Origin: an uncultured Ignavibacteria bacterium | GTDB taxonomy: Bacteria > Zixibacteria > MSB-5A5 > JAABVY01 | Length of the DNA stretch: 64,000 nt | Reading direction: 5' to 3' | NCBI GenBank assembly: GCA_964627935.1 | Contig: CAZVLB010000001.1 | Span: 198,933-262,932, forward strand | Shown here: piece by piece, positions 1,901-61,998 of the stretch | How the letters are laid out: each line of letters begins with the position of its first letter | Position numbering within the stretch: the first letter of the stretch is position 1 | Made by a program: the position numbers and the translations under genes | Notes under the pieces: generated by a model | Seen by the model: only the letters and a program-made list of their open reading frames with translations | What the model was told of the DNA's origin: nothing | Databases searched by the model: none

Positions 1901-2212
1901 GGCATCCCCCATGATTAAGTTTTTTCTGAAGATCTAAATCGGGCAGGTCATTCATTATACACCGATAAGTCCTTAATGTTTACCGATTTCTGTCAAACAT
2001 GGAATGGTGTTTTCAACAATTTTGGCGAAATCATACAATTTACAGCATATCACAGCCCACCCCCCCTGTCAATTTAAAACTGAGCAAATTGATTCAATGA
2101 ATGGCCATTAAATTCGGAACAGAATGCCATTCCATTATGTTTTTAAATGGAAACAAATTACGATAAAAATAGTATTGTATTACAAAGAATTTTAAATGGA
2201 GATATTTATATT

Positions 2213-13650: not shown

Positions 13651-13655
13651 GAACA

Positions 13656-46827: not shown

Positions 46828-47895
46828 ATGAAAATACGCTCACTGGATTTTCGGATCCACGAATTCAAACTCAGCGAACCCTACACGATCGCATATGAGA
46901 CTATCGATACCGCGCCCAACGTATTCCTGCGTATTGAAACGACCGGCGGACTGATTGGCTATGGATGTGCCGCGCCGGATTTTGAGGTCACAGGCGAAAC
47001 TGCCGAGAGTGTGACCGGGGCCATAGCCGGCATTATAGAACCTGCTGTAATCGGTAAAAATCCATTGCGAATTGCCGCAATAATCGAATCCATAAGAGAA
47101 CCGATGAAAAGCCATCCCTCGGCCCTGGCTATGCTGGATATGGCGCTTTACGATATTATCGGAAAGTCCGCCGGCATGCCTCTTTATATTTTTCTGGGTG
47201 GTTACCGCGAGCGTATCAAGACCAGCATTACAATAGGAATTTTGAATGTTGACGAAACTGTGCGACGAGCAGAGGATCTGGTTTCACGCGGTTTTAAGGT
47301 GCTGAAAATAAAGGGCGGAAAAAATGTCGATGATGATATCGAGCGCATCATGAGGGTGCGTGAAAATGTCGGCAAATCGATTGAATTGCGCTTTGATGCC
47401 AACCAGGGCTATAATCTGGAACAGGCCATGAAATTCGTAAAGGAAACCCGCCGCGCCAAGGTCGAGCTCCTGGAGCAGCCGACTCCAAAAGGCGAACCCG
47501 ATCTTCTGGGACGGGTTGCCAGCGAAGTTGCGATTCCTGTTATGGCCGATGAAGGCCTGATGACATTACGTGATGCATTCCGTCTGGCACGACGTGATCT
47601 GGCGGATATGATCAATATCAAATTGATGAAAGTCGGGGGGATATTTAATGCCATACAGATTAATTCCGTTGCCCGTGCGGCTCGTCTTGAAAGCATGGTC
47701 GGATGTATGGATGAGGCCGGACTGGCGATATCAGCCGGGCTTCATTTCGCGCTGGCCCGTCCCAATGTGCTCTATGCCGATCTGGATGGCCATTTCGATC
47801 TGATCGATGATCCCACGGCAGAAGCGGTTATTCTAAAAAACGGTGTCCTTTATCCAACCGGCCAACCCGGCCTGGGCTTCAATCCCCCATTTTAA
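46828..47895 (+). CDS. enolase-superfamily enzyme, MLE subgroup (dipeptide / N-acyl-amino-acid epimerase-like)
   Basis: [22 protein letters not shown], the KxK motif [10 protein letters not shown], and MVGCMDE. Confidence 0.8.
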
Positions 47896-49819
47896 CATCA
47901 TGTTTTGCTGCAAAATCCATGAATTCTATGAGTGCCGGTTGTAAAGAGCTATGGCAGCTGGAACAATGGCTGAGGTTTTTCTTTGCCGCTCGATGCTCCT
48001 CTTGCTCGTGACACTCAATACAATTCTTGTGCATTGCGTTCCTGTATGAGTCGGCATGCGCCAGTTTTAAGCCTCCCAGATCCTGCTCTTTGATCTTCAT
48101 ATCCTGCTGATGGCATTCAACGCAGGCTTTGGCGTTATCCGCCGTATTCGGCCGTGAGGCATCATGACAGAACCGGCAGGAATGATTGGCCGGCTGCATG
48201 GCATTAATTTCTTCCTTTTCAGCAACAAAATTCATATGACTGTAGTGGTCAAAAATATATGTTTCGTCCAGCATATTGGAATGACAGCGATAACAGGGCG
48301 TGGCATTGTCATGAGGCATGGCAATATGATGGCATTTCTGACAGGACTGCTCCTTGCCGAGACGATCCTGATGATCCTTATGAGGGAATTCTGTTTTGAC
48401 ATCGTCCCGGTTACCGTCAATCAGCAGGGTCTCCCTTAGCTGGTCAACTCCAATCGCCGGCTTTATGTTCGGGTTGGGGCTGCTGGCATTTGAGTATGGC
48501 GGATAAAATACAACCCATGTCAGCGGGATAGTTATCATGATTATTAATGACACCCGCTGAAGCCCGCTCATCAGGACATTGTTCCAGACATGTGAAAAGC
48601 GGTCGAAGGCATAAGTGAAAACATCGGATTTCTCCATACGCCTTTTCCAGCTTTCATCGAAAATCGGGAATTTTTCGGAAATGAACAGAAACGCCAATGC
48701 CGCCGCAGCTACTATTCCAAGGCTCAATCCCCATTCCGCAAGTGACGGAAAGTAGGGCACCTGGGCATCGTGAAAATAGGCGAATATACCTACATCCAGA
48801 CGGTTCAGTACAAGTCCGAATGATGCCATGAAAGCGGCCGTGCTCAATCCGGATGGCGACCTGCGAATTCCGGGGACAGCTATTAAGGCTATCGGTACGA
48901 TTACGGCGATTAGCATTTCAAAAATAAAAAGCAGGCTCTCCCATGATCCATTGTAAAGCAGTACAAATTCCCCGGCTCTTCCCAGATCTATTAGCTTCAG
49001 AATAAGATATATGCTCAGTATCGAGGATGCAATAATCGCCAGGTTCGATAGCGGCTTCATCTGGGGTCCGGCAAAAACCTCGGAGCCATTGGGCTTGATC
49101 CCCGAATTCATTCCGAGCCCGTAAATCGGATCCGGATCATACAGGCGGGCATACATGATGCGCACAAATATGATGAACATCATTCCGCCGGCCATGGCTG
49201 AGATGATAAAGAACAAGGGTAGCCAGGCTGAATACCAGAGCGCATGCAGACGCAGGGGGGATACAAGAAACAGCGATCCCAGGGATGAATGGTGCAGGCT
49301 GGATAATGTGATACCCAGTATTACCACGCCGAATGCTATTTTGTGAAGTATGTGAGATATCTTTTCTGCCCCGAGTCTTTTCAGTATGGTCGGACTCAAT
49401 TCGATTGAGGTCACTGTGAAATATAATATCACGCACCAGAAGACCTCGAACAGGAATGAATGCTCGTTCCACATTACAAAGGGATGCCAGAATCTTTGTG
49501 GCAGGCCGATATCGAAAAGCAGGGCCAGGCACGATGAACCGTAACCCAGAAAAGCAATCAGGATAGCAGGCTTGACCAGTGGCCTGAATTTCTCCAGCTT
49601 GAGCACATAAACCAGAAAGCCGACCGTAAATCCGCTGGTTGCAAGCGCTACCCCGGCCACCATGTTCATAATTTTCCACAGTCCCCAGGGCATCTGATCA
49701 GTAAGGTTGGTGGTTGCTCCCAGCCCGTACCAGAGTCGAAAAACCCCCACAACCAGGGCTATGATTGCCAGAAACCAAAGGACATCCTTTATAACTCTTA
49801 ACTTGCTACTCATTTTCAT
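47879..49819 (-). CDS. NrfD/PsrC-family (DsrP/HmcC-like) integral membrane subunit fused to a C-terminal hexaheme cytochrome c domain
   Basis: The N-terminal ~440 aa are polytopic (NrfD-like). The C-terminal ~190 aa carry six CxxCH motifs (CQKCH, CYRCH, CRFCH, CVECH, CIECH, CSSCH). The start is ambiguous (49849, 49819 or 49813). I chose ATG 49819, which overlaps the upstream stop. Confidence 0.75.
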
Positions 49820-50603
49820 GACCCTTTTCAATTTTGGAATCGGATTCACTGTTTTCTTCTTCTATTTCCCTGGCTCTTTTCATTCTTCTACCGATAACCC
49901 AGTTCAGGCTGAGAACACCTGCCATAACTCCCAGCCCGATAAACGGTGTTTTGGAAATGAGCGGTTCGGTCAATTCGGGAATCGACATTTCCGCGGTTCG
50001 GGGCCAGTTCAGTTTCTGCAGGTCCACATCGGAGATATAAATAACCGATGTTCCCCCGAACTCATGCTCGCCCCAGATATGATTTTTATATCTTGCCGGA
50101 TTCTGCTTGATCAGCTTTTGGGCCTCGCTGATAAGTTCCTCGCGTTCTCCGAATTTGAGAGCCTGATTGGGGCAGGCCTCGACACAGGCGGGCAATTTAT
50201 TATCTTTTATTCGTTCGAAACACATGGCGCATTTCATCATGTATGGATGAGGGCTGTCCCATTCATAGCGCGGTATGTGAAATGGACAGGCCAGCATGCA
50301 GTAACGGCAGCCGATACATTTCTCCGCATCGTAAACAACCGGCCCATCCGGAGACTTGGTAATTCCGCCCACAAGGCAGGCGGAGACACAACTGGGTTCT
50401 ACGCAGTGCATGCAGCTTTTGCGCGCAAAATGCCCATCTCCCAATTTTACGATAGTGGACAATCGATCCGCTGAAAGGCCGTCTCTGGATTTCACCGCGT
50501 CAACCTGCGCCTTTTCATAATCCAGATTATTCGCCTCGATGCAGGCATCGATACATTTCTCGCACCCACTGCATCTGGTGACATCAACTAATATTGCATA
50601 CAT
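49806..50603 (-). CDS. NrfC/DsrO/HmcB-like 4x[4Fe-4S] ferredoxin subunit with a C-terminal TM anchor and no N-terminal Tat signal
   Basis: Cluster motifs CSGCEKCIDAC, CMHCVEPSCVSAC, CIGCRYCMLACP and CAMC...CVEACP. The protein begins directly MYAILVDVTRCSGC. The C-terminal TM segment is FIGLGVMAGVLSLNWVIG. Confidence 0.8.
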   Translation of the reverse strand: MYAILVDVTRCSGCEKCIDACIEANNLDYEKAQVDAVKSRDGLSADRLSTIVKLGDGHFARKSCMHCVEPSCVSACLVGGITKSPDGPVVYDAEKCIGCRYCMLACPFHIPRYEWDSPHPYMMKCAMCFERIKDNKLPACVEACPNQALKFGEREELISEAQKLIKQNPARYKNHIWGEHEFGGTSVIYISDVDLQKLNWPRTAEMSIPELTEPLISKTPFIGLGVMAGVLSLNWVIGRRMKRAREIEEENSESDSKIEKGHENE

Positions 50604-51301
50604 CAGACTCTGGCCTCCTCATCGAATAATGCCCTGGCCACCTTATCTCCGGCTCCCGGCCTGAGTTGCCAGTGCAGGCCGGAAATCCTGTCGAAGAAGT
50701 ACAGCACTATATGGGCAAGTTTCGTAAACGGGATTATCAGGAACAGAAGCTCCGCGCTCAACAGATGTGTCAGCATCATGACCTGCCAGCTGAATGGATT
50801 GCTGGATGGATGAGACGCAAGGTAGCCTGTGGCAAATGGTATCAGGATCAGGATCAGCAGGAGGTAGTCAATCGGCTGGCTCATGGCTCTCTGGCGCCTG
50901 ATAAACGTGCGCATTGAAATCAGAACAAGTATACAAACTATCGTGAACAGGGTCAGGAAATCGGCGAGGCCCTGTCCGATTGCCGGCAGATCAATGCCCA
51001 GGTAGTTCTCCCACAGGGCAATATGATCGGCCAGGAATATCGGTACGATTATGATCCCGATGTGAAACATGAATGAAAATGCTGAAAATACAATCGTTCC
51101 CTTGATCATGTGGCGAATTGGCAGAAACCATGTCACCGCATCGGAGAGAATCGATTTCCAGGGAACGTTTTTGAGCCTGCGCCCCTTGCTGCTGATCAGG
51201 TTATAGACCTGGATCACGAACAGCCTCAATAGCCCCAGAATCATAATCAGAAATGTAAATGCGAAAAGCGGCCCTCTGGCAAAATCTATCCAAGCTTCCA
51301 T
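50603..51301 (-). CDS. NarI-family (DsrM/HmcE/TmcC-like) dihaem cytochrome b membrane subunit
   Basis: Five TM segments with conserved His in helices (FMFHIGIII, ADHIALW, LTHLLSAE, KLAHIVLY). The stop/start shares one nucleotide with the next gene (50603). Confidence 0.7.
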   Translation of the reverse strand: MEAWIDFARGPLFAFTFLIMILGLLRLFVIQVYNLISSKGRRLKNVPWKSILSDAVTWFLPIRHMIKGTIVFSAFSFMFHIGIIIVPIFLADHIALWENYLGIDLPAIGQGLADFLTLFTIVCILVLISMRTFIRRQRAMSQPIDYLLLILILIPFATGYLASHPSSNPFSWQVMMLTHLLSAELLFLIIPFTKLAHIVLYFFDRISGLHWQLRPGAGDKVARALFDEEARV

Positions 51302-51346
51302 TTCAAGTGCTCTGCTCCTGTCTTATATTTTCCAAAATTAAATTGC

Positions 51347-52780
51347 TTATATTTCGAACATGGCAGCTTCTTCCTTTCGTTCGGCTGCGCTTTTTGCCCC
51401 GGGAATTTCAATCGCCTTCAGAATCAGGTCATGCAGGCCCATGACCTTGCAGGGCAGATTAAAATGCTCGACCAGTTCCTTGAGCTGTTTTTTGCAATTG
51501 GCGCAGGGTGAGATCAATATCTCGGCCCCTGTCCTGGCAATCTGATCCGCTTTCACCTTGCCCGCTATATTCATGCGGTAATCATGAATCTCGTCTACCG
51601 AAACCAGGCCGCCACCCCCTCCACAGCAATAATTATCCTTGCCATTGGGTGTCATCTCGATGAAATTCGGCACAAATGATCTGAGTATCTCCCGTGGCTG
51701 GTCGACTATCCATCCTGAACGAGCGATATTGCAGGGATCATGATAGCTGACCTTTTCGGTGATAATATCTTTGTTCAAGGTAATCCGGTTTTCACGGATG
51801 CATTGAAGCGTGTATTCCATGAAGTTGAAAACCGGGTAGGGCTTGCCATTGCTGAACACAGGTACGAAATCATGCGCCGAACGGGATGCATGTCCGCATT
51901 CGCCGATCAGGATATTCTTACCCTTAAGGCGGTCCACTTCCCTGATTAACTGTTTGATTATGTTTTCCAGATGCCAGTCGCTGTAAAATAACCCGTAGTT
52001 GATTCCATCATAATTGCATGTACCGATGGTCCAGTTGTCCCAGTCACCCGAGGCATACAAAACGGCGGCGTTGCCCATCAGTGTATCCGGTTCCAGCAGA
52101 TAGTCGCTTACCGCGCAGAAGAAAACATATTTACGTTCGGATTTGTCAACCGGGAATTTGAGTTCCAGGCCGAGTATGTCCTGCATTTCGGATGACAGGA
52201 ATTCCAAAGTGTCCAGCAGGGCCTCTTTGGGAATCTGTGATGTGTTATGTGTCTCACCCTCAAGCTGTTCACGGGTGCTGACCTGTAATGCCTTGGGCAC
52301 TATACCGATCAGGCTCAAAATGTAACGGCCCAATCTGGTAATCATGCCATGGTCAACGCCCATGGGACATTCACGGGTGCATCTGCGGCAGGCGGTACAG
52401 CGGTAGAAGACCTCCGACATCTCGTCGATCACTTTATCGGTCAATTCAAAGCCGGTCGAAACCCGCGATTTAAACCATCCGCCAATAGTGAAGTATCGCT
52501 TATATGTATCCAGAAGCAGGTTCGTCCGGTAACAGGGAATATCCCGCGGATCACGGGTCACCTGGAATATCGGACAGGTGACGGCGCAACGATTACATTT
52601 TGCCGATGAACTGCAATATGAATCGAGCAATGGCTTGTAATCGGTAAATCTAAGAATTGCCGCAAACGCTTCCAGAAACCTTTCAACCCGATTTTCCCTG
52701 AGAGGATTCTCGACATAAAAGGGATATTTTCTTTGCTCTGTCGGTTGTTTGACTTTTGACTCTTCAGGAACTACGCTCAT
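51347..52780 (-). CDS. HdrD/DsrK/HmcF/TmcB-like CCG-domain iron-sulfur protein
   Basis: The track starts at TTG 52795. I prefer ATG 52780 (GGAGAA 7 nt upstream). Ferredoxin motifs are CNRCAVTCP and CTACRRCTRECP. The CCG-domain motifs are YHDPCN, NYCCGGGGG and SPCANCKKQ. Confidence 0.8.
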   Translation of the reverse strand: MSVVPEESKVKQPTEQRKYPFYVENPLRENRVERFLEAFAAILRFTDYKPLLDSYCSSSAKCNRCAVTCPIFQVTRDPRDIPCYRTNLLLDTYKRYFTIGGWFKSRVSTGFELTDKVIDEMSEVFYRCTACRRCTRECPMGVDHGMITRLGRYILSLIGIVPKALQVSTREQLEGETHNTSQIPKEALLDTLEFLSSEMQDILGLELKFPVDKSERKYVFFCAVSDYLLEPDTLMGNAAVLYASGDWDNWTIGTCNYDGINYGLFYSDWHLENIIKQLIREVDRLKGKNILIGECGHASRSAHDFVPVFSNGKPYPVFNFMEYTLQCIRENRITLNKDIITEKVSYHDPCNIARSGWIVDQPREILRSFVPNFIEMTPNGKDNYCCGGGGGLVSVDEIHDYRMNIAGKVKADQIARTGAEILISPCANCKKQLKELVEHFNLPCKVMGLHDLILKAIEIPGAKSAAERKEEAAMFEI

Positions 52781-52821
52781 AAATTTCTTCTCCAAAACAA
52801 ATTGTTTTCAGAAGCAAGGAA

Positions 52822-52837
52822 TGCAAAGAGTATGCCA
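52822..52837 (-). promoter_or_regulatory. sigma-54 (-24/-12) promoter for the redox-complex operon
   Basis: The minus strand reads TGGCATACTCTTTGCA, i.e. TGGCAT-N5-TTGCA, with exact GG-N10-GC spacing. The -12 GC is about 43 nt upstream of ATG 52780. Confidence 0.7.
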
Positions 52838-53010
52838 TTAAACTTTGCTGACCATTGCCTGCTCGAGATAAGAAGCGGTTTGGGGAGGATGTTTTTGGAG
52901 ATCGCCGAGTGCGATATCAGGATGAACGGGGGAAATGAATTTTACTAAACTGCCCAGCCTGATATTTTTTGATTTTGGTTTTTTATACGGTTTCATTGGT
53001 TTCAAAAACA

Positions 53011-53093
53011 GAGACAAAATGTCGCACGTGTTGCAACATAATGTTTCACTGCGACATGCCCTGCGACACAAAATGCAACCCTGATTTTGTCTC
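53011..53093. promoter_or_regulatory. candidate enhancer (UAS) region between the divergent sigma-54 promoters
   Basis: A perfect 10-bp inverted repeat GAGACAAAAT (53011-53020) / ATTTTGTCTC (53084-53093) brackets the heptamers TGTCGCA (53020-53026) and TGCGACA (53050-53056 and 53062-53068), plus the palindrome GTTGCAAC (53030-53037). Confidence 0.5.
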
Positions 53094-53227
53094 CTTTTAT
53101 CGCATTTTCGGGTTCTGTTATTCCAGTTCTGCAATCTGTTTATCCCTCAATAAGCAGGGCAGTTTCCTTCTGTCGGCAATGCTGTTTCATGCTCACATAA
53201 ACTTCCTAAGCTGTGGCGTGTAGCCAA

Positions 53228-53243
53228 TGGCATGCTAATTGCA
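53228..53243 (+). promoter_or_regulatory. sigma-54 (-24/-12) promoter for the NifX-like/DUF1847 operon
   Basis: TGGCATGCTAATTGCA, i.e. TGGCAT-N5-TTGCA with exact spacing. AGGAGA RBS at 53256-53261 and ATG at 53267. Confidence 0.7.
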
Positions 53244-53266
53244 AATATCATGGGCAGGAGAAAATT

Positions 53267-54304
53267 ATGTGCTATGCCATACCGATATTTTTGAACCGGG
53301 TTGCGCCTCGTTGCACGATTGCGGATTATATTCTGCTCCTGATAATGAAGGGCAACAGGGTTGTTTCGAGCAGGCGCATCAATTTGCAAAACTGCACCTG
53401 GTTCGATCTTATGCGCATACTGGAAGAAAACAAGGTCGATTACCTTATATGCGGAGGAATCAACCGGCAGAGCCGTGATATGCTGCAAAGCCTTGGTATA
53501 GTGATCATGGATAATGTATGTTGCAGTGATTCCCAGGCTCAGAAGGCGCTTGAATCGGGTGAGATGCATGCAGGCTATGGCTTCGCTCCCAAGAGTCATG
53601 ATGGATCGGCTGCAGATCGTGGCGCATTTATCAAGCTGGAGACTTCGGATGAGGAGAAGCGCAGGCAGGAGAATCAAAGCAGGCTTTTAAACTCCAATCA
53701 GAATATTGACTGCCTCACATGTAGCGATAAAGTCTGCCTGCAGGGGAAGCCTTGCCGGCCGAGGATTGCTCAACAAAGCGAAACCGAATCGCCTGAGACG
53801 CGCAAAATCCTTGAATCATCGTTGGATGTTATGTCGGAAAAGGAGCGCACCCTGTGCAGATTGTCGGAGCTGATCTATTTCTGCCTGGGGATGAAATACC
53901 GCCGGATCGGGATAGCATTCTGTCTGGACCTGTTCGAGCAGACAGAAATCCTGAGCCGTTTGTTGAGACGCTTTTTTGATGTATATCCGGTCTGCTGCAA
54001 GATCGGCGGAAGAAAAATCTATGATCCCAATTCAATGGGCGATGCAAGTCGTGAACGCGGCAGCTATTCGGATATCGCCTGTAATCCTGAGGGGCAGGCC
54101 GAGATGCTCAACCGCATCGGCACGGATATCAATATAATCGTAGGTCTCTGCATGGGGGTTGACTGTATTTTTTCAAAAGCCAGCAATGCTCCCGTTTCGA
54201 CGCTGTTTGTTAAGGATAAATCGCTGGCTCATAATCCAATCGGTGCGCTCTATTCCGAATATTACCTGAAAGAAATCACCAGGACAAATGTCGGCAGCAC
54301 ATGA
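53267..54304 (+). CDS. fusion of a NifX/NifB-type (MTH1175-like) domain and a Cys-rich DUF1847-like domain
   Basis: The track starts at 53213. I prefer ATG 53267. The N-domain is MCYAIPIFLNRVAPRC...VDYLICGGINRQSRDMLQSLGIVIM. The C-domain is IDCLTCSDKVCLQGKPC ... DIACNPEGQAEMLNRIGTDINIIVGLCMGVDCIFSK...LFVKDKSLAHNPIGALYS. Confidence 0.55.
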   Translation: MCYAIPIFLNRVAPRCTIADYILLLIMKGNRVVSSRRINLQNCTWFDLMRILEENKVDYLICGGINRQSRDMLQSLGIVIMDNVCCSDSQAQKALESGEMHAGYGFAPKSHDGSAADRGAFIKLETSDEEKRRQENQSRLLNSNQNIDCLTCSDKVCLQGKPCRPRIAQQSETESPETRKILESSLDVMSEKERTLCRLSELIYFCLGMKYRRIGIAFCLDLFEQTEILSRLLRRFFDVYPVCCKIGGRKIYDPNSMGDASRERGSYSDIACNPEGQAEMLNRIGTDINIIVGLCMGVDCIFSKASNAPVSTLFVKDKSLAHNPIGALYSEYYLKEITRTNVGST

Positions 54305-54346
54305 GATACTGAAAATTCAAATTATGATAATAAAACTGGAGGAGCT

Positions 54347-54883
54347 ATGGCTATCCCGACCTTAAACGCAATTGGTTTTTGCGCCAATTATTCCAAACCG
54401 GGCGATTGGGCATTTAAGTATGCCCTGGAATTGTCGCGCAGGCATGGAATCCAACTTAATGTGTTTCATTTCCTGGAGGATCCCTATGATCCCTACGATC
54501 GCACAAAGCATCTGCTTTCCCCGCAGGAATGCGAGAAACTTGCCATTGAACGAGAACGGGAACTGAGGATCTACTACGATAACCTGGCCGGAGACTATCT
54601 CGATGTGGGGTTCCGCCTGTGTGAGGACAGGGAATGGACCGAGCTGCATCGCTGCCTGGTAATTCGTGAATTTCAGGTGCTGGTGCTGGGTTATGTCCAT
54701 CCACAGGCTACATTTGCAAATCTGCCAATTGAGGAATTTGCGGATAATTTTATCTGCCCGGTGGTTCTTGTTGGACCGGATCATCCCGATCAGTACCACT
54801 TAAACAGCAGAGCGAAGATAATTGTCGATGATCTCGGCCTGCCACCCGGATGCTGGAACGAAATTGGTCAGATTTCGGCTTAA
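54347..54883 (+). CDS. universal-stress-protein-like (USP fold) protein, apparently lacking the ATP-binding Gly motif
   Basis: GGAGGAG RBS. The USP-like layout is IGFCANYSKPGDWAFKYALELSRRHGIQLNVFHF ... FQVLVLGY...FICPVVLVG, but there is no G-x2-G-x9-G(S/T). Confidence 0.4.
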   Translation: MAIPTLNAIGFCANYSKPGDWAFKYALELSRRHGIQLNVFHFLEDPYDPYDRTKHLLSPQECEKLAIERERELRIYYDNLAGDYLDVGFRLCEDREWTELHRCLVIREFQVLVLGYVHPQATFANLPIEEFADNFICPVVLVGPDHPDQYHLNSRAKIIVDDLGLPPGCWNEIGQISA

Positions 54884-55020
54884 TCTTTGGGGGTTTGGCT
54901 GCGTACAATGATATGGAAACGAGCATGATTGCATTTTTGCAGTCCGTGCAGTGTTATATATTGATTTAATTTGAAGAATCTGCATATTTATTAAGCAGAC
55001 AGATACCGGGTCAGGTTGTA

Positions 55021-56331
55021 ATGGCGCAGAAACTTAGTGAAATTATTTTTAACAGTATCTCCGACGGTGTTTTCACCGTAAACGGCGAATGTATTATAAC
55101 TTCCTTTAATAAGGCCGCTGAAGAAATTACCGGTTTCGAGGCGGAGGAGGCAATCGGCAAACACTGCTATGATATCTTCCGCACCGAGATCTGCAACAAG
55201 AAATGCGCCCTTAAAGATACCCTGAAAACCCATGAGGCGGTCGAGAATGCGCGTGTTACAATCATTACCCGGGATGGGTGCGAGATACCCATAAGCGTCT
55301 CTACAACGATGCTGAAGGATAATGAGGGAAATATTGCCGGGGCTGTCGAATTCTTCCGTGATATCTCTGAGATCGATTATCTCGAAAGAAGCCTGGAACG
55401 CAAGCAGACTCTGGGAGACATCGTAACGGTTAACGATAAGATGCAGCAGTTAATTGCGCTTCTTCCGGATGTTGCCGATTCCGATTGCAGTGTTCTGATT
55501 GAGGGGCCCAGCGGATGCGGCAAGGAATTGTTTGCCCAGGTATTGCATAATCTCAGCCCGCGCAAATATGGCCCCTATATTAAGATTAACTGTGCCGCTC
55601 TTCCGGCCAATCTGCTGGAGTCTGAGTTGTTTGGCTATGTTAAAGGGGCCTTTACAGATGCCAAGCGAGACAAGCCGGGACAATTCTGCCTGGCCAATGG
55701 TGGCACGTTGCTTCTGGATGAAATCAGCGAGATGGATGTTGCCCTGCAGGTTAAGCTTCTGCGCGTTCTCAATAACGGCGAATACAGGCCCCTCGGATCG
55801 ACCAAGACATTGCATACCGATGCTCGCGTAATTGCCGCCACCAATGCCGATCTTACAGCTGAAATTGAAGCCGGGAGATTTCGCAAAGATCTCTATTATC
55901 GCATCAATGTGGTTAACTTGAAAATCCCGGCCCTGCATGAACGTCCCGAAGATATACCGCTGCTGGTCAACCATTTCATGCAGATCTTCCGCAAAAAAAC
56001 AAGGCGGCCGGTTGAACGCGTATCTCCGGATGCATTGACCATGTTGCGCAATTATCCCTTCCCGGGCAATGTACGTGAACTTGAAAATGCGGTTGAGCAT
56101 GCCTTTGTGATGTGTCATGGTGACCAGATTGAAAGCTGTCATCTGCCCGCAAATATCTCAGAAACACAGGTTGAAAGAGTTAGTATCTCAACCAATGGCA
56201 ACAGCGAGAAGAAAATCATTCAGGATGCGCTCAGGCGTAACAATGGCAACAGGAACAAAACAGCACGGGAACTGGGGGTCCATCGTTCCACACTCTGGCG
56301 CAAATTGAAAAGCTATGGTATAGAGGCATGA
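55021..56331 (+). CDS. sigma-54-dependent transcriptional activator, PAS + AAA+ + Fis-type HTH (no receiver domain)
   Basis: The PAS domain has the Cys triad HCYDIFRTEICNKKCAL. Walker A is GPSGCGKE. The sigma-54 contact loop reads ESELFGYVKGAFTDA (GAFTDA variant). Also RFRKDLYYRIN, and the C-terminal HTH NRNKTARELGVHRSTLWRKLK. Confidence 0.9.
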   Translation: MAQKLSEIIFNSISDGVFTVNGECIITSFNKAAEEITGFEAEEAIGKHCYDIFRTEICNKKCALKDTLKTHEAVENARVTIITRDGCEIPISVSTTMLKDNEGNIAGAVEFFRDISEIDYLERSLERKQTLGDIVTVNDKMQQLIALLPDVADSDCSVLIEGPSGCGKELFAQVLHNLSPRKYGPYIKINCAALPANLLESELFGYVKGAFTDAKRDKPGQFCLANGGTLLLDEISEMDVALQVKLLRVLNNGEYRPLGSTKTLHTDARVIAATNADLTAEIEAGRFRKDLYYRINVVNLKIPALHERPEDIPLLVNHFMQIFRKKTRRPVERVSPDALTMLRNYPFPGNVRELENAVEHAFVMCHGDQIESCHLPANISETQVERVSISTNGNSEKKIIQDALRRNNGNRNKTARELGVHRSTLWRKLKSYGIEA

Positions 56332-56388
56332 TTATTTTCCAGCTAATTTTCATAAATAAAATTCACTTTTCAAACGGGGCTTTCTGTT

Positions 56389-57723
56389 ATGTCGGATACA
56401 ATCAGGCAGGATAATATAACCGATACAATTCTGGATTCCATCGCCGATGGTGTCTTTACTATCGACAAGGACTGGCGCATAACATCCTTTAACCATGCCG
56501 CCGAGGAGATTACATCGATCTCAAAAGATGAGGCTATTGGCCAGAGATGCTGTGATGTGTTCAGGGCCTCGATTTGTGAAAATGACTGTGCCCTGCGCAA
56601 TGCTCTTGACACCAATAAGCCGGTGATCAATAAGATGGTTTATATAATCGATGCCTCGGGCAAAAAAATACCCATCAGTATCTCTGCGGCGGTTCTGCGC
56701 AATAAAGACGGTGAGATAATCGGCGGTGTGGAGACATTTCGGGACCTTTCTACCATAGAGCGACTCAAACGTGAGCTGGAAAAAAGGTATTCCTTCCATG
56801 ATATTATCAGCAAAAATGACAGGATGCTGAGAATTTTCGATTTATTGCCCAGTATCGCTGAATCCGACAGCACAGTCCTGATCGAGGGCCAGAGCGGCAC
56901 CGGCAAGGAACTTATCGCCAGGGCGATTCATAATCTGTCATTTCGCAAAAACAAGCCGATTGTGTCGATAAACTGCGGAGCCCTGCCGGACAGCCTGCTG
57001 GAATCAGAATTGTTCGGGTATAAGGCCGGCGCTTTTACCGATGCCAAAAAAGACAAGCCGGGAAGATTCGCATTGGCCGAGGGCGGCACTATCTTTCTGG
57101 ATGAAATTGCGGATATTTCGCCTGCCATGCAGGTTCGACTGCTGCGCGTAATTCAGGAACACAAATATGAGCCATTGGGAGCCACGGAAAGCGCTTCCGC
57201 GGATGTCAGGATAATCGCCGCTTCCAACAGGAACCTGCAGAAGATGGTGAAAAATGGAGATTTCAGAGAGGACCTGTATTATCGAATAAATGTAATCAGG
57301 GTGGAGCTGCCGGACCTGCGCAACCGTAAAGAAGATATACCGCTTCTGATCAATCATTTTATCGGAAAGTTGAACAGCCTGAAGAATAAATCGGTCATCG
57401 ATATATCGCCCGAGGTGCTGGCAATACTGATGAATCATGACTATCCGGGAAATATCAGGGAGCTTGAGAATATAATCGAACATGCCTTTGTACTCTGCCG
57501 GGGATCAACTGTCACTGTGGAAGACCTGCCCGAAAACCTGAAAGAAGCTGACAGAATGCCGGTCTATCAAACAGAATCCTTCGATAGACTTGAGGCCGCC
57601 TACCTTCGGGATATTCTCCGCAGGAACAACTGGAACCGCACAAAAACCGCCACAGAACTGGGAATCCATAAAACCACATTATGGCGCAAAATGAAGAAAC
57701 TGCAAATCCTTCCGCAAACCTGA
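56389..57723 (+). CDS. second sigma-54-dependent activator, same PAS + AAA+ + HTH architecture (tandem paralog)
   Basis: The PAS Cys motif is RCCDVFRASICENDCAL. Walker A is GQSGTGKE. Also ESELFGYKAGAFTDA, DFREDLYYRIN, and the HTH NRTKTATELGIHKTTLWRKMK. Confidence 0.9.
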   Translation: MSDTIRQDNITDTILDSIADGVFTIDKDWRITSFNHAAEEITSISKDEAIGQRCCDVFRASICENDCALRNALDTNKPVINKMVYIIDASGKKIPISISAAVLRNKDGEIIGGVETFRDLSTIERLKRELEKRYSFHDIISKNDRMLRIFDLLPSIAESDSTVLIEGQSGTGKELIARAIHNLSFRKNKPIVSINCGALPDSLLESELFGYKAGAFTDAKKDKPGRFALAEGGTIFLDEIADISPAMQVRLLRVIQEHKYEPLGATESASADVRIIAASNRNLQKMVKNGDFREDLYYRINVIRVELPDLRNRKEDIPLLINHFIGKLNSLKNKSVIDISPEVLAILMNHDYPGNIRELENIIEHAFVLCRGSTVTVEDLPENLKEADRMPVYQTESFDRLEAAYLRDILRRNNWNRTKTATELGIHKTTLWRKMKKLQILPQT

Positions 57724-57726
57724 ATC

Positions 57727-57775
57727 ATTGCGATAATGCAATACCCCAAACCAGGCACCATTGCGTATTTGCAAT
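57727..57775. promoter_or_regulatory. pair of 16-bp palindromes, candidate activator binding sites (UAS)
   Basis: ATTGCGATAATGCAAT (57727-57742) and ATTGCGTATTTGCAAT (57760-57775). Both are ATTGC-N6-GCAAT with centres 33 bp apart, about 100-150 bp upstream of the candidate -24/-12 element. Confidence 0.5.
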
Positions 57776-57873
57776 ATGTGGCTGTTGAATAATCGGATTT
57801 TGCAGCCATATGTATCCTTCTATCTCCTAATAAATTAATGACATAGCAAATGTAGCCTGCTTGTCGAGCTGAT

Positions 57874-57889
57874 CGGCATGTTATCTGCA
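57874..57889 (+). promoter_or_regulatory. candidate sigma-54 promoter for the 57905-61998 operon
   Basis: CGGCATGTTATCTGCA has GG and GC at the correct GG-N10-GC spacing (GGCAT-N5-CTGCA). The weakness is that the ATG at 57905 is only about 16 nt from the -12 GC and has no obvious SD. Confidence 0.35.
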
Positions 57890-57904
57890 ATAACAAATAC
57901 TGAT

Positions 57905-58321
57905 ATGAAAATTGCAATATCAATATGGAATCAGCGTGTATCTCCGGTAATGGACACTGCCCGTCAACTGGCGCTTGTGGAAATAGACGGGGGAATTGAA
58001 ACCACGCGTGAGATTATAGGCATTCCCGAAACCGAGTTGTCACGCAGGGCCGAATTCATCAGGAATCTGGGTGTGGATGCTTTAATATGTGGAGCCATCT
58101 CATTTTTATTCGAAGATGCATTGCGCAAGAGGGGGATTAATGTCTATGCCTGGATCAGAGGTGAGCTTGATTCAGTGATAAAAGCTTTTGCAAAGGGAGA
58201 CCTGTTACGAGGTGAGTTCAGCCTGCCCGGATGCAGAAGAAGACGGTGCCGTTATGGTTCAGGCAATAAGCGCGGAAGAAGAATGAATTTCAGCATAAAC
58301 AGGTTTGAGGAGGATTTATGA
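57905..58321 (+). CDS. NifX/NifB-type (MTH1175-like) domain protein with an Arg/Cys-rich tail
   Basis: The track starts at 57878. I prefer ATG 57905 so that the N-terminus MKIAISIWNQRVSPVMDTA aligns with the paralogs MKIAVSAQG and MRIAVPVENG. Also GVDALICGAIS, and the tail CRRRRCRYGSGNKRGRR. Confidence 0.55.
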   Translation: MKIAISIWNQRVSPVMDTARQLALVEIDGGIETTREIIGIPETELSRRAEFIRNLGVDALICGAISFLFEDALRKRGINVYAWIRGELDSVIKAFAKGDLLRGEFSLPGCRRRRCRYGSGNKRGRRMNFSINRFEEDL

Positions 58322-58680
58322 AAATAGCGGTTTCTGCACAGGGCAAGCAAATCACCGACATGGTTGATCCCAGATTCGGCAGGGCCCCATGCTTCATTAT
58401 TTTTGATACAGATACAGATCAATATGAAGTGGTGGATAATGCCCGGAATGCCATGGCAGGCCAGGGCGCGGGTGTGCAGGCGGCACAGAATGTCGCCGAT
58501 CATCGTCCGGATATTGTGGTCTCTGGCAATCTCGGGCCCAAGGCTTTTCAGGTATTATCATCAGCCGGTATCAAGATCGCCCTCTGGGATAAGGGCAATG
58601 TGGCGGATGCGATCGATCTTGTCCGAAGCAATAAACTTGAATTTTCCAAATCGGCCAATGTTGCAGGCCATTGGAGTTAA
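58318..58680 (+). CDS. NifX/NifB-type (dinitrogenase FeMo-cofactor-binding fold, MTH1175-like) protein
   Basis: MKIAVSAQGKQITDMVDPRFGRAPCFIIFDTDTDQYEVVDN ... PDIVVSGNLGPKAFQVLSSAGIKI is the canonical pattern for this family. ATGA overlap with the upstream gene. Confidence 0.75.
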   Translation: MKIAVSAQGKQITDMVDPRFGRAPCFIIFDTDTDQYEVVDNARNAMAGQGAGVQAAQNVADHRPDIVVSGNLGPKAFQVLSSAGIKIALWDKGNVADAIDLVRSNKLEFSKSANVAGHWS

Positions 58681-58714
58681 TCGAAAATACAAAACGGAAT
58701 TAGGAGTGATAATT

Positions 58715-59092
58715 ATGCCAGGTGGAGACAGGACAGGTCCATGGGGGGCAGGTCCAAGAACAGGACGAGGAGCAGGCTATTGCGCCGGTTTCAGGCAGCC
58801 CGGATATGCCACGCCATTTATTTATGGTCGCGGTGCAGGATTCGGAAGAGGAGGGGGCCGTGGCGGTGGACGCGGCTGGAGACATTGGTACTATGCCACC
58901 GGTCTTCCCGGATGGGCCCGGACATCCGGATACGGCCGTGGGTATGCGCCCGGTTATGAGTTTGATGACGTCTCCGGTCCCGAGTTCAGTCGAAAATCCG
59001 ATGAGGCGGCATATCTCAGGCAGGAGGCTCGAAACCTTGAAGCGGCCTTAAAAGATATCAACAAGAGGATTGAGGAAATTGAGAAGAAATAG
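58715..59092 (+). CDS. DUF5320-like Gly/Arg-rich protein with C-terminal coiled coil
   Basis: ORF 58364..59092, but its 5' part overlaps 58318..58680 out of frame. I prefer ATG 58715 (AGGAG RBS). The protein reads MPGGDRTGPWGAGPRTGRGAGYCAGF...GRGGGRGGGRGWRHWYY...LRQEARNLEAALKDINKRIEEIEKK. Confidence 0.55.
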   Translation: MPGGDRTGPWGAGPRTGRGAGYCAGFRQPGYATPFIYGRGAGFGRGGGRGGGRGWRHWYYATGLPGWARTSGYGRGYAPGYEFDDVSGPEFSRKSDEAAYLRQEARNLEAALKDINKRIEEIEKK

Positions 59093-59112
59093 CACAGGAA
59101 GGAAGGACACCT

Positions 59113-59337
59113 ATGAGTAATTTTCGTGGACAAGGCGGATCCGGCGGGGGCCAGGGTGGTGGTCAGGGCCGGGGTCGCGGCGCAGGTCAGGGCAGGAATC
59201 GAGCCGGTGGCGGCCAGGGTCTGGGACCCGGGGGACAATGTGTCTGTCCCAATTGCGGCGAGACAGTAAATCATCAGCGCGGAGTGCCGTGTAACTCAAT
59301 CAAATGCCCCAATTGCGGCAGGTTAATGACGCGCTGA
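59113..59337 (+). CDS. small Gly-rich protein with C-terminal double CxxC zinc-ribbon-like motif
   Basis: GGAAGGA RBS. The protein reads MSNFRGQGGSGGGQGGGQGRGRGAGQGRNRAGGGQGLGPGGQCVCPNCGETVNHQRGVPCNSIKCPNCGRLMTR. Confidence 0.55.
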   Translation: MSNFRGQGGSGGGQGGGQGRGRGAGQGRNRAGGGQGLGPGGQCVCPNCGETVNHQRGVPCNSIKCPNCGRLMTR

Positions 59338-59356
59338 TGGCAACAAGGAAAAACAT

Positions 59357-60211
59357 TTGTTTAAAATAGCTATTGCCAGCGGAAAAGGCGGCACGGGCAA
59401 AACAACCATTGCCACAAACATGGCAGTGGCTCTGGCTAAACATGGCAAAGACGTAACCTATGCTGATTGCGATGTGGAAGAGCCCAATGGGCACATCTTC
59501 CTTAAACCATTAATCAGTGCTGCGGAATTAGTATCCCTGCCCGTGCCGCAGATAAATGAAGATCTATGTACTTATTGCGGTGAATGTGCCAGGATCTGTG
59601 AATACAATGCCATCGCTGTCTTTGCCAATAAGATACTGTTCTTTCCATCGCTCTGCCACAGTTGCGGCGGGTGTTATCATATCTGCCCCGAAAAAGCCAT
59701 TATCGAAATACCCAGGCCTATCGGTGAATTGAGATTTGGTGAAGGGCAGGGTGTAAAATTTATTGAAGGCTCGCTCAATATCGGGGAATCGATATCACCG
59801 CCTGTCACCCACAGGCTGAAAAACAGGATAGGGGAATGCGAAGTTGTACTGATCGATGCGCCTCCGGGAACATCATGCCCGGTTATCGAAGCGATTGAAG
59901 ACTCTGATTATGTGATACTGGTCACCGAACCGACCCCATTCGGTCTAAATGATCTCAAACTGGCGGTAGCCATGGTCCGTCAACTGGAATTGCCGATGGG
60001 CGTGATAATCAATCGTGCAGGCCTTGGTAATAATCAGACTGAATCCTATTGCAAAAATGAAGGTATCGATATCCTGCTGAAAGTGCCTTTCGATCGAAAA
60101 CTGGCCGAGTCATATTCAAGAGGCAATTTACACAATGGTGACGATGGAAATCTGAGCGAACAGCTCTACGGGCTCTATCATCAAATAAGGGAAAGGTCAA
60201 AAGTTGTTTGA
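59357..60211 (+). CDS. MinD/ParA-type P-loop ATPase with inserted 2x[4Fe-4S] ferredoxin domain (COG1149-like)
   Basis: TTG start. Deviant Walker A IASGKGGTGKTT, ferredoxin motifs CTYCGECARIC and CHSCGGCYHICP, and Walker B VLIDAPPG. Confidence 0.8.
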   Translation: MFKIAIASGKGGTGKTTIATNMAVALAKHGKDVTYADCDVEEPNGHIFLKPLISAAELVSLPVPQINEDLCTYCGECARICEYNAIAVFANKILFFPSLCHSCGGCYHICPEKAIIEIPRPIGELRFGEGQGVKFIEGSLNIGESISPPVTHRLKNRIGECEVVLIDAPPGTSCPVIEAIEDSDYVILVTEPTPFGLNDLKLAVAMVRQLELPMGVIINRAGLGNNQTESYCKNEGIDILLKVPFDRKLAESYSRGNLHNGDDGNLSEQLYGLYHQIRERSKVV

Positions 60212-61094
60212 ATTGACTGTCGTGAGCGGCAAGGGGGGAACAGGCAAAACAAGCCTGGTGGGATCACTATCTGCCCTGGCAAAGAATAAAATTGTTGTTG
60301 ATTGCGATGTGGATGCCGCCGATTTGCATCTGATCATCGATCATGAGATTCAGCGCAGTAATGATTTCATAGCCGGCAGTAAGGCGGAGGTCAATCAGGA
60401 GCTATGTACCGGATGCGGCATTTGCGTTGATTACTGTCGTTTTGATGCAATCAAATATGATCGTGATTATTTTCATGTATTGCCGCTGGCCTGCGAGGGA
60501 TGTGGTGTCTGCAGGCATTTCTGTCCCGAAGATGCCATTGATTTCCGACCGGTAAAAAGTGGCGAATGGTTTGTGTCCAAAAGTCGTTATGGCCCCTTTG
60601 TGCATGCCCGGCTTGGGATTGCCCAGTCGAATTCGGGCCGGCTTGTATCGTTATTGCGACAGGAGGCCCGGCAAATTGCAGCCGAGAAGAATCTGGATAT
60701 GATCATAGTCGACGGCCCGCCTGGTATCGGCTGTCCGGTTATTGCATCGATAACAGGTGCCGATTTCGTGCTTCTGGTCACCGAGCCCTCCTTATCGGCT
60801 TTTCATGATATGAGACGTCTGATAGAATTGATTGATCATTTTGAGATAAGGTCCGGAATCTGTATAAACAAATATGATATAAATCCCGACCTCAGCAGAA
60901 AGATTGAGCAGTTTGCAAATGAGCATGAACTGGATGTCATGGGGAGGATTCCATTTGATAATGATATTACCAGGGCCCAGGTGGAGGGTATGAATCTGAT
61001 TGAATTCTCAGATGGCCAGGCGGCCGGGCAGATTAAAATGCTCTGGGAAGAATTAAAAAGGCGTGTTAATAGTTTCAATATAAGAACTGCCTGA
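60204..61094 (+). CDS. second MinD/ParA-type P-loop ATPase with inserted 2x[4Fe-4S] ferredoxin domain
   Basis: TTG start overlapping the previous gene by 8 nt. Motifs VSGKGGTGKTS, CTGCGICVDYC, CEGCGVCRHFCP and IIVDGPPG. Confidence 0.8.
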   Translation: MFELTVVSGKGGTGKTSLVGSLSALAKNKIVVDCDVDAADLHLIIDHEIQRSNDFIAGSKAEVNQELCTGCGICVDYCRFDAIKYDRDYFHVLPLACEGCGVCRHFCPEDAIDFRPVKSGEWFVSKSRYGPFVHARLGIAQSNSGRLVSLLRQEARQIAAEKNLDMIIVDGPPGIGCPVIASITGADFVLLVTEPSLSAFHDMRRLIELIDHFEIRSGICINKYDINPDLSRKIEQFANEHELDVMGRIPFDNDITRAQVEGMNLIEFSDGQAAGQIKMLWEELKRRVNSFNIRTA

Positions 61095-61152
61095 AATGAT
61101 AGAATAAAAACACTGAAGTAAACAACTAAAGATTGCTGTTTAGGAGGAATTC

Positions 61153-61542
61153 ATGAGAATAGCAGTACCTGTGGAAAATGGCGTTCTCTGTTCGCATTTT
61201 GGAAACTGCCAGCAGTTTTCTTTTATCGATGTTAATCCTGATACAAGACAGATAACCGAGATATCATTTAAAACTCCCCCGCCTCATCAACCGGGCATAC
61301 TTCCGGCCTGGATCAGTGAACAGGGCTGCAATCTTGTAATTGCGGGCGGTATCGGAATGCGTGCCAATAATATGTTTCATCAGAGTGGTATAAGCGTTAT
61401 TTCCGGCGCACCAAGTAAAAAGCCGGAGGAACTTGTTAGTGCTTTTCTGGAAGGTACTCTGGAAAGCGGTGGAAATTTATGCAATGGTCCGGAATTTAAA
61501 AAGCAGGGCGGGCATAACTGTCATGGAGATGGGGATCATTAA
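61153..61542 (+). CDS. NifX/NifB-type (MTH1175-like) protein
   Basis: GGAGG RBS. MRIAVPVENGVLCSHFGNCQQFSFIDV ... CNLVIAGGIGMRANNMFHQSGISVI. The C-terminal tail is His/Gly-rich (GGHNCHGDGDH). Confidence 0.7.
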   Translation: MRIAVPVENGVLCSHFGNCQQFSFIDVNPDTRQITEISFKTPPPHQPGILPAWISEQGCNLVIAGGIGMRANNMFHQSGISVISGAPSKKPEELVSAFLEGTLESGGNLCNGPEFKKQGGHNCHGDGDH

Positions 61543-61998
61543 ATGTCCATGGGCATGACAAAATCCCTGCAAATTACGGCATCATCTGAGATTCTCGAAC
61601 GCAGGCGCAAACGGGAGCATGCGCATTGTTTTCTCTGCAGCAATCCCATGCATTCCGAATTGGGATTGCGCTTTGAGGTTGATGGTGAAGATCAGATATC
61701 TGCCAGCTTTGAGTGTGAGAGTCTTTATCAGGGATATGATGGCATATTGCATGGTGGAATAGTCTCGCTGTTATTTGATGAAGCCATGACAAATTGCCTG
61801 TTCGCCCATGATATCAGGGCGGTGACGGCAGAATTGACTATTCGTTATATTCTGCCTGTTGCAATAAGCAGGTCCGCAAAAATAACTGCCTCGATAAAAA
61901 AAATCAGGCCGCCTTTGTACTGTCTTGAGGCGGAGATCATTCAGGATGGTGAAATAAAGGCTAAAGCAAAAAGCAAGTTCATGGACTTCGACCCATGA
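61543..61998 (+). CDS. PaaI/4HBT-type hotdog-fold thioesterase
   Basis: It starts immediately after the previous stop. The core is YQGYDGILHGGIVSLLFDEAMTNCL, with an N-terminal HCFLCSNP motif. Confidence 0.6.
   Translation: MSMGMTKSLQITASSEILERRRKREHAHCFLCSNPMHSELGLRFEVDGEDQISASFECESLYQGYDGILHGGIVSLLFDEAMTNCLFAHDIRAVTAELTIRYILPVAISRSAKITASIKKIRPPLYCLEAEIIQDGEIKAKAKSKFMDFDP

Follow-up and report, generated by a model that had tools for sequence, protein, structure and literature searches.

The ORange Protein (ORP) complex of Desulfovibrio is encoded by the orp cluster, DVU2103-DVU2109. Orp3 and Orp4 are ATPases of the MinD-like type that bear Fe-S clusters and C-terminal amphipathic helices, Orp8/ORP homologues carry a non-covalent [S2MoS2CuS2MoS2] cluster, and Orp9 (MrpORP), a fusion of Mrp/NBP35 and Di-Nase domains, is an Fe-S carrier that holds a [3Fe-4S] cluster in its Di-Nase domain and passes clusters to Orp3/Orp4 in vitro (PMC6345978). 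The orp system depends on integration host factor (IHF) (PMC3897727) and on OrpR (DVU2106), a sigma-54 activator with the loop variant GAFTDA (PMC4641369), whose PAS domain binds a [4Fe-4S] cluster, sensitive to redox state, through C52, C61 and C65 and whose activity is confined to low potential (PMC8359166). OrpR has been regarded as limited to Deltaproteobacteria, and the role of ORP was called unclear by the authors of that work (PMC8359166); a literature search returned no later paper that settles it. Here we describe a locus in a 64,000-nucleotide stretch of DNA (the window) from an uncultured Ignavibacteria bacterium, in which a variant of the ORP system stands beside a second sigma-54-controlled gene set built around a membrane complex that resembles the Hmc and DsrMK complexes.

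An additional point of reference is IssA of Pyrococcus furiosus, an iron-sulfur storage protein that holds thioferrate through a cationic tail rich in glycine, arginine and aromatic residues; the 70-residue tail contains 15 Gly, seven cationic and 14 aromatic residues and one Cys, with a pI of 10.7 (PMC5524996). An earlier annotation of the same DNA (the original prediction) had described positions 53228-61998 as a single module of NifX-like carriers, Fe-S ATPases and small Gly/Arg-rich proteins under sigma-54 control. Every gene and motif of its inventory was recovered in place. It had also likened the module to DVU2103-DVU2109, which it took for an anonymous predicted regulon; the resemblance stands, while the genes in question are the named and experimentally studied ORP system, whose physiological function is, as that annotation said, still unestablished.

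Two sigma-54 units, their activators and their synteny

The region is best described as two adjacent and separable sigma-54 regulons, each with its own OrpR-type activator, and we consider a redox-gated pairing of an Hmc-like with an ORP-type gene set to be its probable nature. Unit A (47879-56331) comprises a four-gene Hmc/DsrMK-like membrane complex divergent from genes for a NifX-DUF1847 fusion protein, a protein of the universal stress protein (USP) fold and activator 1. Unit B (56389-61998) comprises activator 2 and an ORP-like operon with its own sigma-54 promoter and two upstream palindromes.

A scan of both strands of the 64 kb with the strict sigma-54 consensus TGGCAY-N5-TTGCW, for which 0.29 matches are expected by shuffling, gave only two matches, and these face outward from the divergent intergenic region of unit A (470 bp). 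One, TGGCATGCTAATTGCA at 53228-53243 on the plus strand, is the promoter of the NifX-DUF1847 operon that had been named in the original prediction; the other, TGGCATACTCTTTGCA at 52822-52837 on the minus strand, precedes the membrane-complex operon. Of 77 distinct intergenic regions from related loci, 58 hold an equivalent of the former, 39-67 nt ahead of the start codon, and 64 hold an equivalent of the latter, approximately 45 nt upstream of the gene for the CCG (HdrD-type) subunit of the complex. Between the two promoters, alignment with three related loci (L001, L003 and L004) revealed a cluster of TGTYGCA/TGCRACA half-sites at 53020-53068, including the palindrome TGTTGCAACA. We designate this central enhancer upstream activating sequence 1 (UAS-1); its core k-mers TTGCAAC and TGTTGCA recur in 74/77 and 70/77 of the related regions, always in the middle. 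UAS-1 is the predicted binding region of activator 1 and would serve both divergent promoters.

Unit B is controlled by different elements. The sigma-54 promoter of the ORP-like operon, CGGCATGTTATCTGCA, lies at 57874-57889 on the plus strand; five related loci (L019, L025, L028, L029 and L078) have a GG-N10-GC element 31-37 nt ahead of the start codon, and four more (L020, L027, L031 and L035) have looser versions. Further upstream, at 57728-57774, are two 14-bp palindromes, TTGCGATAATGCAA (57728-57741) and TTGCGTATTTGCAA (57761-57774), 33 bp apart (UAS-2). These are the only two matches to TTGC-N6-GCAA in the window, and activator 2 is predicted to bind them. In L019, L020, L025, L029 and L031 the pair sits at -178 and -145 relative to the start codon, and a single copy is present in L027, L028 and L035; in L001 the palindromes and the sigma-54 element precede an ORP-like operon that has no activator gene adjacent. 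No strict IHF site (WATCAR-N4-TTR), such as those at the orp promoters of D. vulgaris Hildenborough (DvH), was found between enhancers and promoters, and searches for sigma-70 promoters and intrinsic terminators that might mark the operon ends returned counts at chance level.

The two activators, encoded on the plus strand at 55021-56331 (activator 1) and 56389-57723 (activator 2), had been identified earlier as tandem PAS-AAA+ sigma-54 activators, and Pfam finds PAS, Sigma54_activat and HTH_8 domains in both. They share 50% identity, and activator 2 travels with the ORP-like operon. Each matches OrpR of DvH in its diagnostic features: the Cys triad C52/C61/C65 corresponds to C49-x8-C58-x3-C62 in activator 1 and to a C-x8-C-x3-C motif beginning at residue 54 in activator 2, the acidic residue D/E54 of OrpR corresponds to an Asp two residues after the first Cys, and the loop reads GAFTDA. 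All orthologues, 72 of activator 1 and nine of activator 2, have the triad; the Cys+2 position is Asp or Glu in every case but one, and GAFTDA is kept in 78 of the 81. Among the activator-1 orthologues alone, C-x-[DEN]-x6-C-x3-C is conserved in 72/72 and the acidic position is D or E in 71. By analogy with the Cys triad of OrpR, both units would be gated by redox potential. OrpR-type activators and ORP-type genes reach well beyond Deltaproteobacteria.

In order to place these genes in a wider context, an alignment of the NifX-DUF1847 fusion was searched against a collection of 185,579 species genomes, which gave relatives in 220 genomes. The 16 proteins of the window were mapped onto the loci of the 80 best matches, and counts are given where the contig reaches far enough. 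These 80 genomes belong to Zixibacteria, Ignavibacteria, Kapabacteria, Gemmatimonadota, Acidobacteriota, Planctomycetota, GN15 and others, at least six phyla in all. The fusion gene has the USP-like gene as its immediate downstream neighbor in 74/74 loci, activator 1 comes next in 67/68, the CCG gene is divergent upstream in 65/66, and all four membrane-complex genes are present in 54/56. When all open reading frames (ORFs) of the loci were clustered without supervision, the seven unit A families were the only near-universal ones. In these 80 genomes, an OrpR-type activator, an Hmc/DsrMK-like complex and two uncharacterized Cys-rich proteins form a new and near-invariant pairing. By contrast, of 36 loci with full flanks only 10 have an ORP-type ATPase inside 10 kb (15/80 overall); where present, these ATPases lie to one side or the other and point in either direction, always accompanied by activator 2.

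These observations bear on the single module proposed earlier. On account of a second promoter, distinct palindromes and separable synteny, one operon or one regulon was rejected: the operon of ATPase, ORP and DUF5320 genes has its own promoter, upstream palindromes and activator, and adjoins unit A in about one quarter of the relatives. The original prediction had further viewed the whole stretch as an ATP-driven carrier or insertion machine for metalloclusters or Fe-S clusters, with the divergent membrane complex as its client. The complex is indeed rich in Fe-S clusters and hemes and is co-regulated with a NifX-fold protein, in vitro MrpORP hands Fe-S clusters on to Orp3/Orp4 (PMC6345978), and the proportion of loci in which the ORP-like operon stands beside unit A suggests an association above chance. 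However, the ATPase, ORP and DUF5320 genes are not found within 10 kb in most relatives and have their own promoter, sites and activator, and dedicated maturases seldom keep one-to-one synteny and a shared enhancer over six phyla while their ATP-using parts are dispensable. The proposed link to the heme- and Fe-S-rich complex holds for NifX-DUF1847 and the USP-like protein and fails for the ATPases; since the ORP-like operon is separately promoted and adjacent in a minority of relatives, the argument from co-regulation is limited to the former two proteins. We do not favor an ATP-driven carrier with the membrane complex as its client and give it a low probability.

The Hmc/DsrMK-like complex and its cytoplasmic partners

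The four genes of the membrane complex are read from the minus strand. The gene nearest the promoter (51347-52780) encodes a DsrK/HmcF-like cytoplasmic Fe-S subunit of the CCG (HdrD) type, with Pfam matches to CCG (E=2e-12) and Fer4_8 and an intact C...CCG...CxxC motif; its best NCBIfam families, by score, are 267 bits to DsrK (cut-off 400), 212 to HmcF (cut-off 750) and 198 to TmcB. Its start is likely the ATG at 52780, which has GGAG before it, although the listed ORF begins at a TTG at 52795. The next gene (50603-51301) encodes an HmcE/TmcC-like membrane subunit of the NarI type (heme b type), weakly matched by Pfam Nitrate_red_gam and scoring 123 bits to each of the NCBIfam HmcE and TmcC models, below their cut-offs (275 for HmcE). 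It is followed by a gene for an HmcB-like subunit with four [4Fe-4S] clusters (49806-50603; Pfam Fer4_11, E=6e-23; NCBIfam HmcB, 242 bits against a cut-off of 420). The last gene (47879-49849) encodes an HmcC-like NrfD membrane subunit (Pfam NrfD and Cytochrom_CIII; NCBIfam HmcC, 254 bits against a cut-off of 550) with a fused C-terminal hexaheme cytochrome c domain, whose six CxxCH motifs lie at residues 503-633.

The set of CCG subunit, NarI-type subunit, four-cluster Fe-S protein (HmcB), NrfD-type subunit (HmcC) and multiheme cytochrome c is that of the Hmc, Tmc and DsrMKJOP complexes of sulfate reducers. The differences are as follows. Where Hmc and Dsr have a separate periplasmic cytochrome (HmcA with 16 hemes, DsrJ with three), the HmcC-like subunit of the window bears a fused domain with six hemes. 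The HmcB-like subunit differs from its counterparts in the absence of a signal peptide and in a score under the equivalog cut-off: it begins right at the first ferredoxin motif, the HmcB profile matches from position 37, profile comparison finds no N-terminal Tat or Sec signal peptide, and a C-terminal transmembrane helix is present. Unit A is also set apart by its control through sigma-54 and an OrpR-type activator and by its constant pairing with NifX-DUF1847 and the USP-fold protein. Neither dsrAB nor dsrC was seen near unit A. Since all scores fall under the equivalog cut-offs, the complex is Hmc/DsrMK-like and not a member of those families.

Across phyla (L005-L084) the CCG subunit is 66-86% and activator 1 is 61-84% identical, compared with 41-63% for NifX-DUF1847; the high values suggest lateral spread, strong constraint, or both. 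Near the unit, some relatives have the NarI-like, Fer4_11 and NrfD-cytochrome genes once more, in a copy that has diverged further (33-47% identity; L012, 7-3300; L078, 17858-21000; L053, 15478-18300).

On the other side of the intergenic region, the first gene (53267-54304, plus strand) encodes the fusion protein, in which a NifX-like domain (residues 1-105) is joined by a disordered linker to a DUF1847 domain (Pfam E=7.6e-35, as the original prediction had it). Of the four NifX-like domains annotated earlier, three pass the Pfam model PF02579; that of the fusion protein gives E=0.024 and is instead supported by profile-profile comparison and its predicted structure. It matches the family of the NifX-like protein at 57905 with 99% probability (E=8.5e-18) and the other two NifX-like families with 91-95%, and its AlphaFold model matches PH0822, TM1816, MJ0327, MTH1175 and ORP with target-normalized template modeling (TM) scores of 0.65-0.79. 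The PF02579 fold is shared with the NifX, NafY and NifB-C carriers of nitrogenase cofactors, and the window holds four copies of it; the nif gene context is not shared. Cofactor handling for nitrogenase can be rejected here, in accordance with the earlier annotation: no nitrogenase-type family occurs among the 20 largest other ORFs of the window, and the window encodes no further P-loop ATPase of the type found in unit B.

The DUF1847 domain contains approximately 10 conserved Cys residues (Cx2Cx4Cx5C, a CC-K pair, C-NP and others), and its core is modeled as an alpha/beta domain. A search of PDB profiles with the fusion protein recovered the NifX-like domain alone and nothing for DUF1847, and no mention of DUF1847 was found in the literature search. 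Homologues of the fusion number 668 at E<=1e-5, with query coverage of 88-100% among the 120 matches listed.

The second gene (54347-54883, plus strand) encodes the 178-residue USP-fold protein. The USP-like assignment made earlier is weak by Pfam (E=0.048; 14.7 bits against a cut-off of 24) and is borne out by the AlphaFold model (predicted local distance difference test score of 85), which matches the USPs TeaD, UspE, TTHA and Rv2623 at E of approximately 1e-5. While the alpha/beta fold is shared with universal stress proteins, their ATP-binding motif is not; G-x2-G-x9-G(S/T) was not evident on reading the 178-residue sequence. The family has 528 members, nearly all of 178 residues, in which Cys12, Cys92 and Cys103 are invariant and Cys137 is nearly so.

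Subunits of the HdrD/DsrK type act on a protein or cofactor substrate through thiol/disulfide or trisulfide chemistry. Because they are invariably co-encoded, co-regulated and Cys-rich, NifX-DUF1847 and the USP-fold protein are the best candidates for the redox partner or substrate of the complex, a proposal that goes further than the data require. A scheme for unit A may be drawn from these parts. At low redox potential the OrpR-type activator would act from the central enhancer and both promoters would fire together, producing on one side an Hmc/DsrMK-type transmembrane electron-transfer complex and on the other NifX-DUF1847 and the Cys-bearing USP-fold protein as its dedicated partners. The CCG subunit might then exchange electrons with NifX-DUF1847 or reduce its sulfur or metal-sulfide cargo, in parallel to the action of DsrK on DsrC.

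The literature search found no description of a seven-gene unit that combines an OrpR-type activator with an Hmc-like complex, and the unit is a more interesting result than the ORP-like variant beside it. One might go further and see in it an unrecognized respiratory or redox module, in which the DsrK/HmcF-type subunit acts on NifX-DUF1847 as a DsrC-analogous carrier of sulfur or metal-sulfide, with the USP-fold protein as accessory, the OrpR-type activator as gate and the ORP-type neighbor as an arm for cluster supply or storage. We offer this as a tentative proposal with a rather small chance of being right in full. If true, it would give the enigmatic ORP system a physiological partner. 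In more general terms, DUF1847 may be a partner of HdrD-type subunits, and unit A is a candidate energy-metabolism module that may matter in the Zixibacteria, Ignavibacteria, Gemmatimonadota and Acidobacteriota abundant in soils and sediments.

The ORP-like operon

Judged by its gene content, unit B represents the ORP system, known but functionally unsolved, in variant form and in a new lineage. All its genes are on the plus strand. The first gene after the promoter (57905-58321) encodes a NifX-like protein (NifXa; PF02579, E=8e-8) with a cationic, Cys-containing tail, in which 10 of 34 residues are Arg or Lys, and shares its subfamily with the NifX-like domain of the DUF1847 fusion. The sigma-54 element ends approximately 16 nt before its ATG, with no Shine-Dalgarno sequence, so that the predicted leader is only a few nucleotides long; a longer ORF from 57878 would overlap the promoter. 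The single-domain orange protein, Orp8, is matched by the product of 58318-58680 (PF02579, E=3.5e-20), for which the best solved structure is D. gigas ORP (2WFB, E=5e-19).

Such a clear ORP homologue, together with the Mo-Cu-S cluster of ORP/Orp8 (PMC6345978), raises the alternative that, in sulfidic habitats, unit B stores or detoxifies thiomolybdate- or thiotungstate-copper clusters, and an anionic thiometallate of any sort would fit its cationic Gly/Arg proteins. The metal content is not something that can be read from sequence, however, and neither the unit nor its recurrent neighbors include genes for molybdate, tungstate or copper transport or cofactors; we regard this specialization as unlikely. 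The broader proposal is that unit B would assemble, hold or deliver anionic metal-sulfide species on NifX-fold scaffolds, since the NifX-fold ORP, MrpORP's Di-Nase domain and IssA each hold such species; the Gly/Arg/aromatic proteins would be electrostatic partners like the IssA tail, and the ATPases nucleotide-driven Fe-S switches.

The two small Gly/Arg-rich proteins noted earlier are encoded by the next two genes. One is a DUF5320 protein (58715-59092; Pfam E=7e-23), whose first 88 residues include 28 Gly, 11 Arg, 16 Phe, Trp or Tyr and one Cys, with a pI of 10.2, and whose C-terminal region is apparently a coiled coil. The other (59113-59337) ends in a C4 zinc ribbon and has orthologues at the same position in L009, L025, L040 and L078. 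The DUF5320 family comprises 2928 representative clusters, mostly of stand-alone proteins, and the literature search met it only in an unrelated study of plant transcription factors and a survey of archaeal G-quadruplexes. Both the NifX-fold (IPR003731) domain and the composition and pI of the DUF5320 region, which are near those of the IssA tail, recall IssA, and DUF5320 may be an IssA-like polyanion binder. In IssA, though, the long tail is fused to the IPR003731 domain, whereas in the window the cationic region lies in a separate DUF5320 protein and in the Gly-rich zinc-ribbon protein, and NifXa has a cationic tail of only 34 residues.

Downstream are the genes for two paralogous ATPases of the Orp3/Orp4 type (59357-60211 and 60204-61094), MinD-family proteins with an inserted 2x[4Fe-4S] ferredoxin domain. 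Both match CbiA/ParA and have two Fer4 stretches, and each contains, as described previously, two CxxCxxCxxxC motifs. Their P-loops, SGKGGTGKTT and SGKGGTGKTS, are the only KGGxGK[ST] sequences in the window, one in each protein. The correspondence to the paralogous pair Orp3/Orp4 was drawn from their published description.

The MinD-like ATPases of the Desulfovibrio system and their partners have been proposed to act in cell division or in placing the septum. Inactivation of orpR in DvH leads to morphological defects (PMC8359166), and MrpORP is found at the cell pole while Orp3/Orp4 have MinD-like amphipathic helices (PMC8359166, PMC6345978). The ATPases of the window do match MinD models, but at 72-80 bits, far under cut-offs of about 200, and no fts, min or other division genes are present in the unit or in the related loci. 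All other components are metal-cluster or Cys-rich proteins, and the ORP authors themselves call the role unclear; a function in division is improbable for unit B.

MrpORP is represented by one of its halves. The gene at 61153-61542 encodes a stand-alone homologue of the C-terminal Di-Nase domain of MrpORP/Orp9 (PF02579, E=2.6e-18), which matches positions 265-365 of the NCBIfam MrpORP model (E=3.3e-35) and contains its CxHFGxC and TPPPHxPGxxP motifs. The Mrp/NBP35 half is not in the window, nor is there an Mrp-type P-loop anywhere in it. A stand-alone Mrp half is encoded in seven related loci (for example L043, 3726-4562), with 276 bits to positions 2-257 of the MrpORP model. The parts of the ORP system are modular: MrpORP can occur as separate halves, and DUF5320 proteins can join the set. 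The final gene of the unit (61543-61998) encodes a hotdog-fold thioesterase (4HBT, E=3e-7; the PaaI-like protein of the earlier inventory). It is loosely associated, as few relatives (L022, L034, L038 and L040) have it beside the unit.

A sigma-54 promoter and an OrpR-type activator complete the correspondence with the ORP system. The arrangement differs: orp in DvH consists of two divergent operons flanking orpR, while unit B is one co-directional operon downstream of activator 2. Relative to orp in DvH, unit B has in addition the DUF5320 protein, the Gly-rich zinc-ribbon protein and the thioesterase, its host is not a member of Desulfobacterota, and it adjoins a second OrpR-type regulon. The orp cluster of DvH is not known to lie beside hmc, which also speaks against the carrier-and-client model of the original prediction.

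The reading weighed, and neighboring genes

Gene content, homologies, promoters, upstream motifs and synteny counts are observed in the sequences; the match of activators to sites, the gating by redox potential and the whole of the biochemistry are inferred. Several points weigh against the two-regulon, redox-gated reading. The pairing of activator 1 with UAS-1 and of activator 2 with UAS-2 was drawn from synteny, and at 50% identity the two proteins could cross-regulate; the palindromes of the window (TTGC-N6-GCAA in unit B) also differ from the OrpR site of DvH, GGGCGYRTTTTGCGCCC. The synteny figures describe only the 80 closest of the 220 species genomes, and all 80 loci come from metagenome-assembled genomes. 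All membrane subunits score under the NCBIfam equivalog cut-offs, and the HmcB-like subunit, with its missing signal peptide, would cloud the topology and sidedness of the complex and the direction of electron flow. DUF1847 has no informative relative: Foldseek gives weak matches to carbamoyltransferase-like Rossmann folds (TM approximately 0.2), and because neither structure nor sequence offers a relative, a DsrC-like role is an analogy only. A "split IssA" was also sought in domain fusions and rejected, as 10/10 longer DUF5320 proteins carry DUF5320 alone and no NifX domain; with no NifX-DUF5320 fusion among these 10, the IssA parallel is one of composition only.

Other genes are linked to the unit in relatives and are not found in the window. 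A radical-SAM gene of about 310 codons is linked in 20 related loci (for example L005, 3598-4530). It was considered as one half of a split NifB and rejected, as its product weakly matches viperin, W-cofactor maturase and MoaA models and not NifB. A protein of about 148 residues with CxxxxCxxxxC and CGGC motifs is encoded in seven related loci (for example L049, 2308-2754).

Within the window, a SufBD-core protein is encoded at 24328-25281, with a 247-residue ORF adjacent at 23588-24331, so that genes for general Fe-S assembly lie approximately 30 kb from the two units. Directly beyond the membrane-complex operon is a 355-residue unannotated ORF (46828-47895), preceded by a gene (44440-46821) for a 793-residue protein with a C-terminal creatininase domain and an N-terminal SGGKDS (PP-loop-like) motif; neither is conserved beside the unit in relatives. 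Elsewhere the window encodes a DsbD-type thiol:disulfide interchange protein (2147-4360), LigD ligase and Prim-Pol proteins of non-homologous end joining (12661-14579) and a baeRF (eRF1-like) protein (20943-22103).

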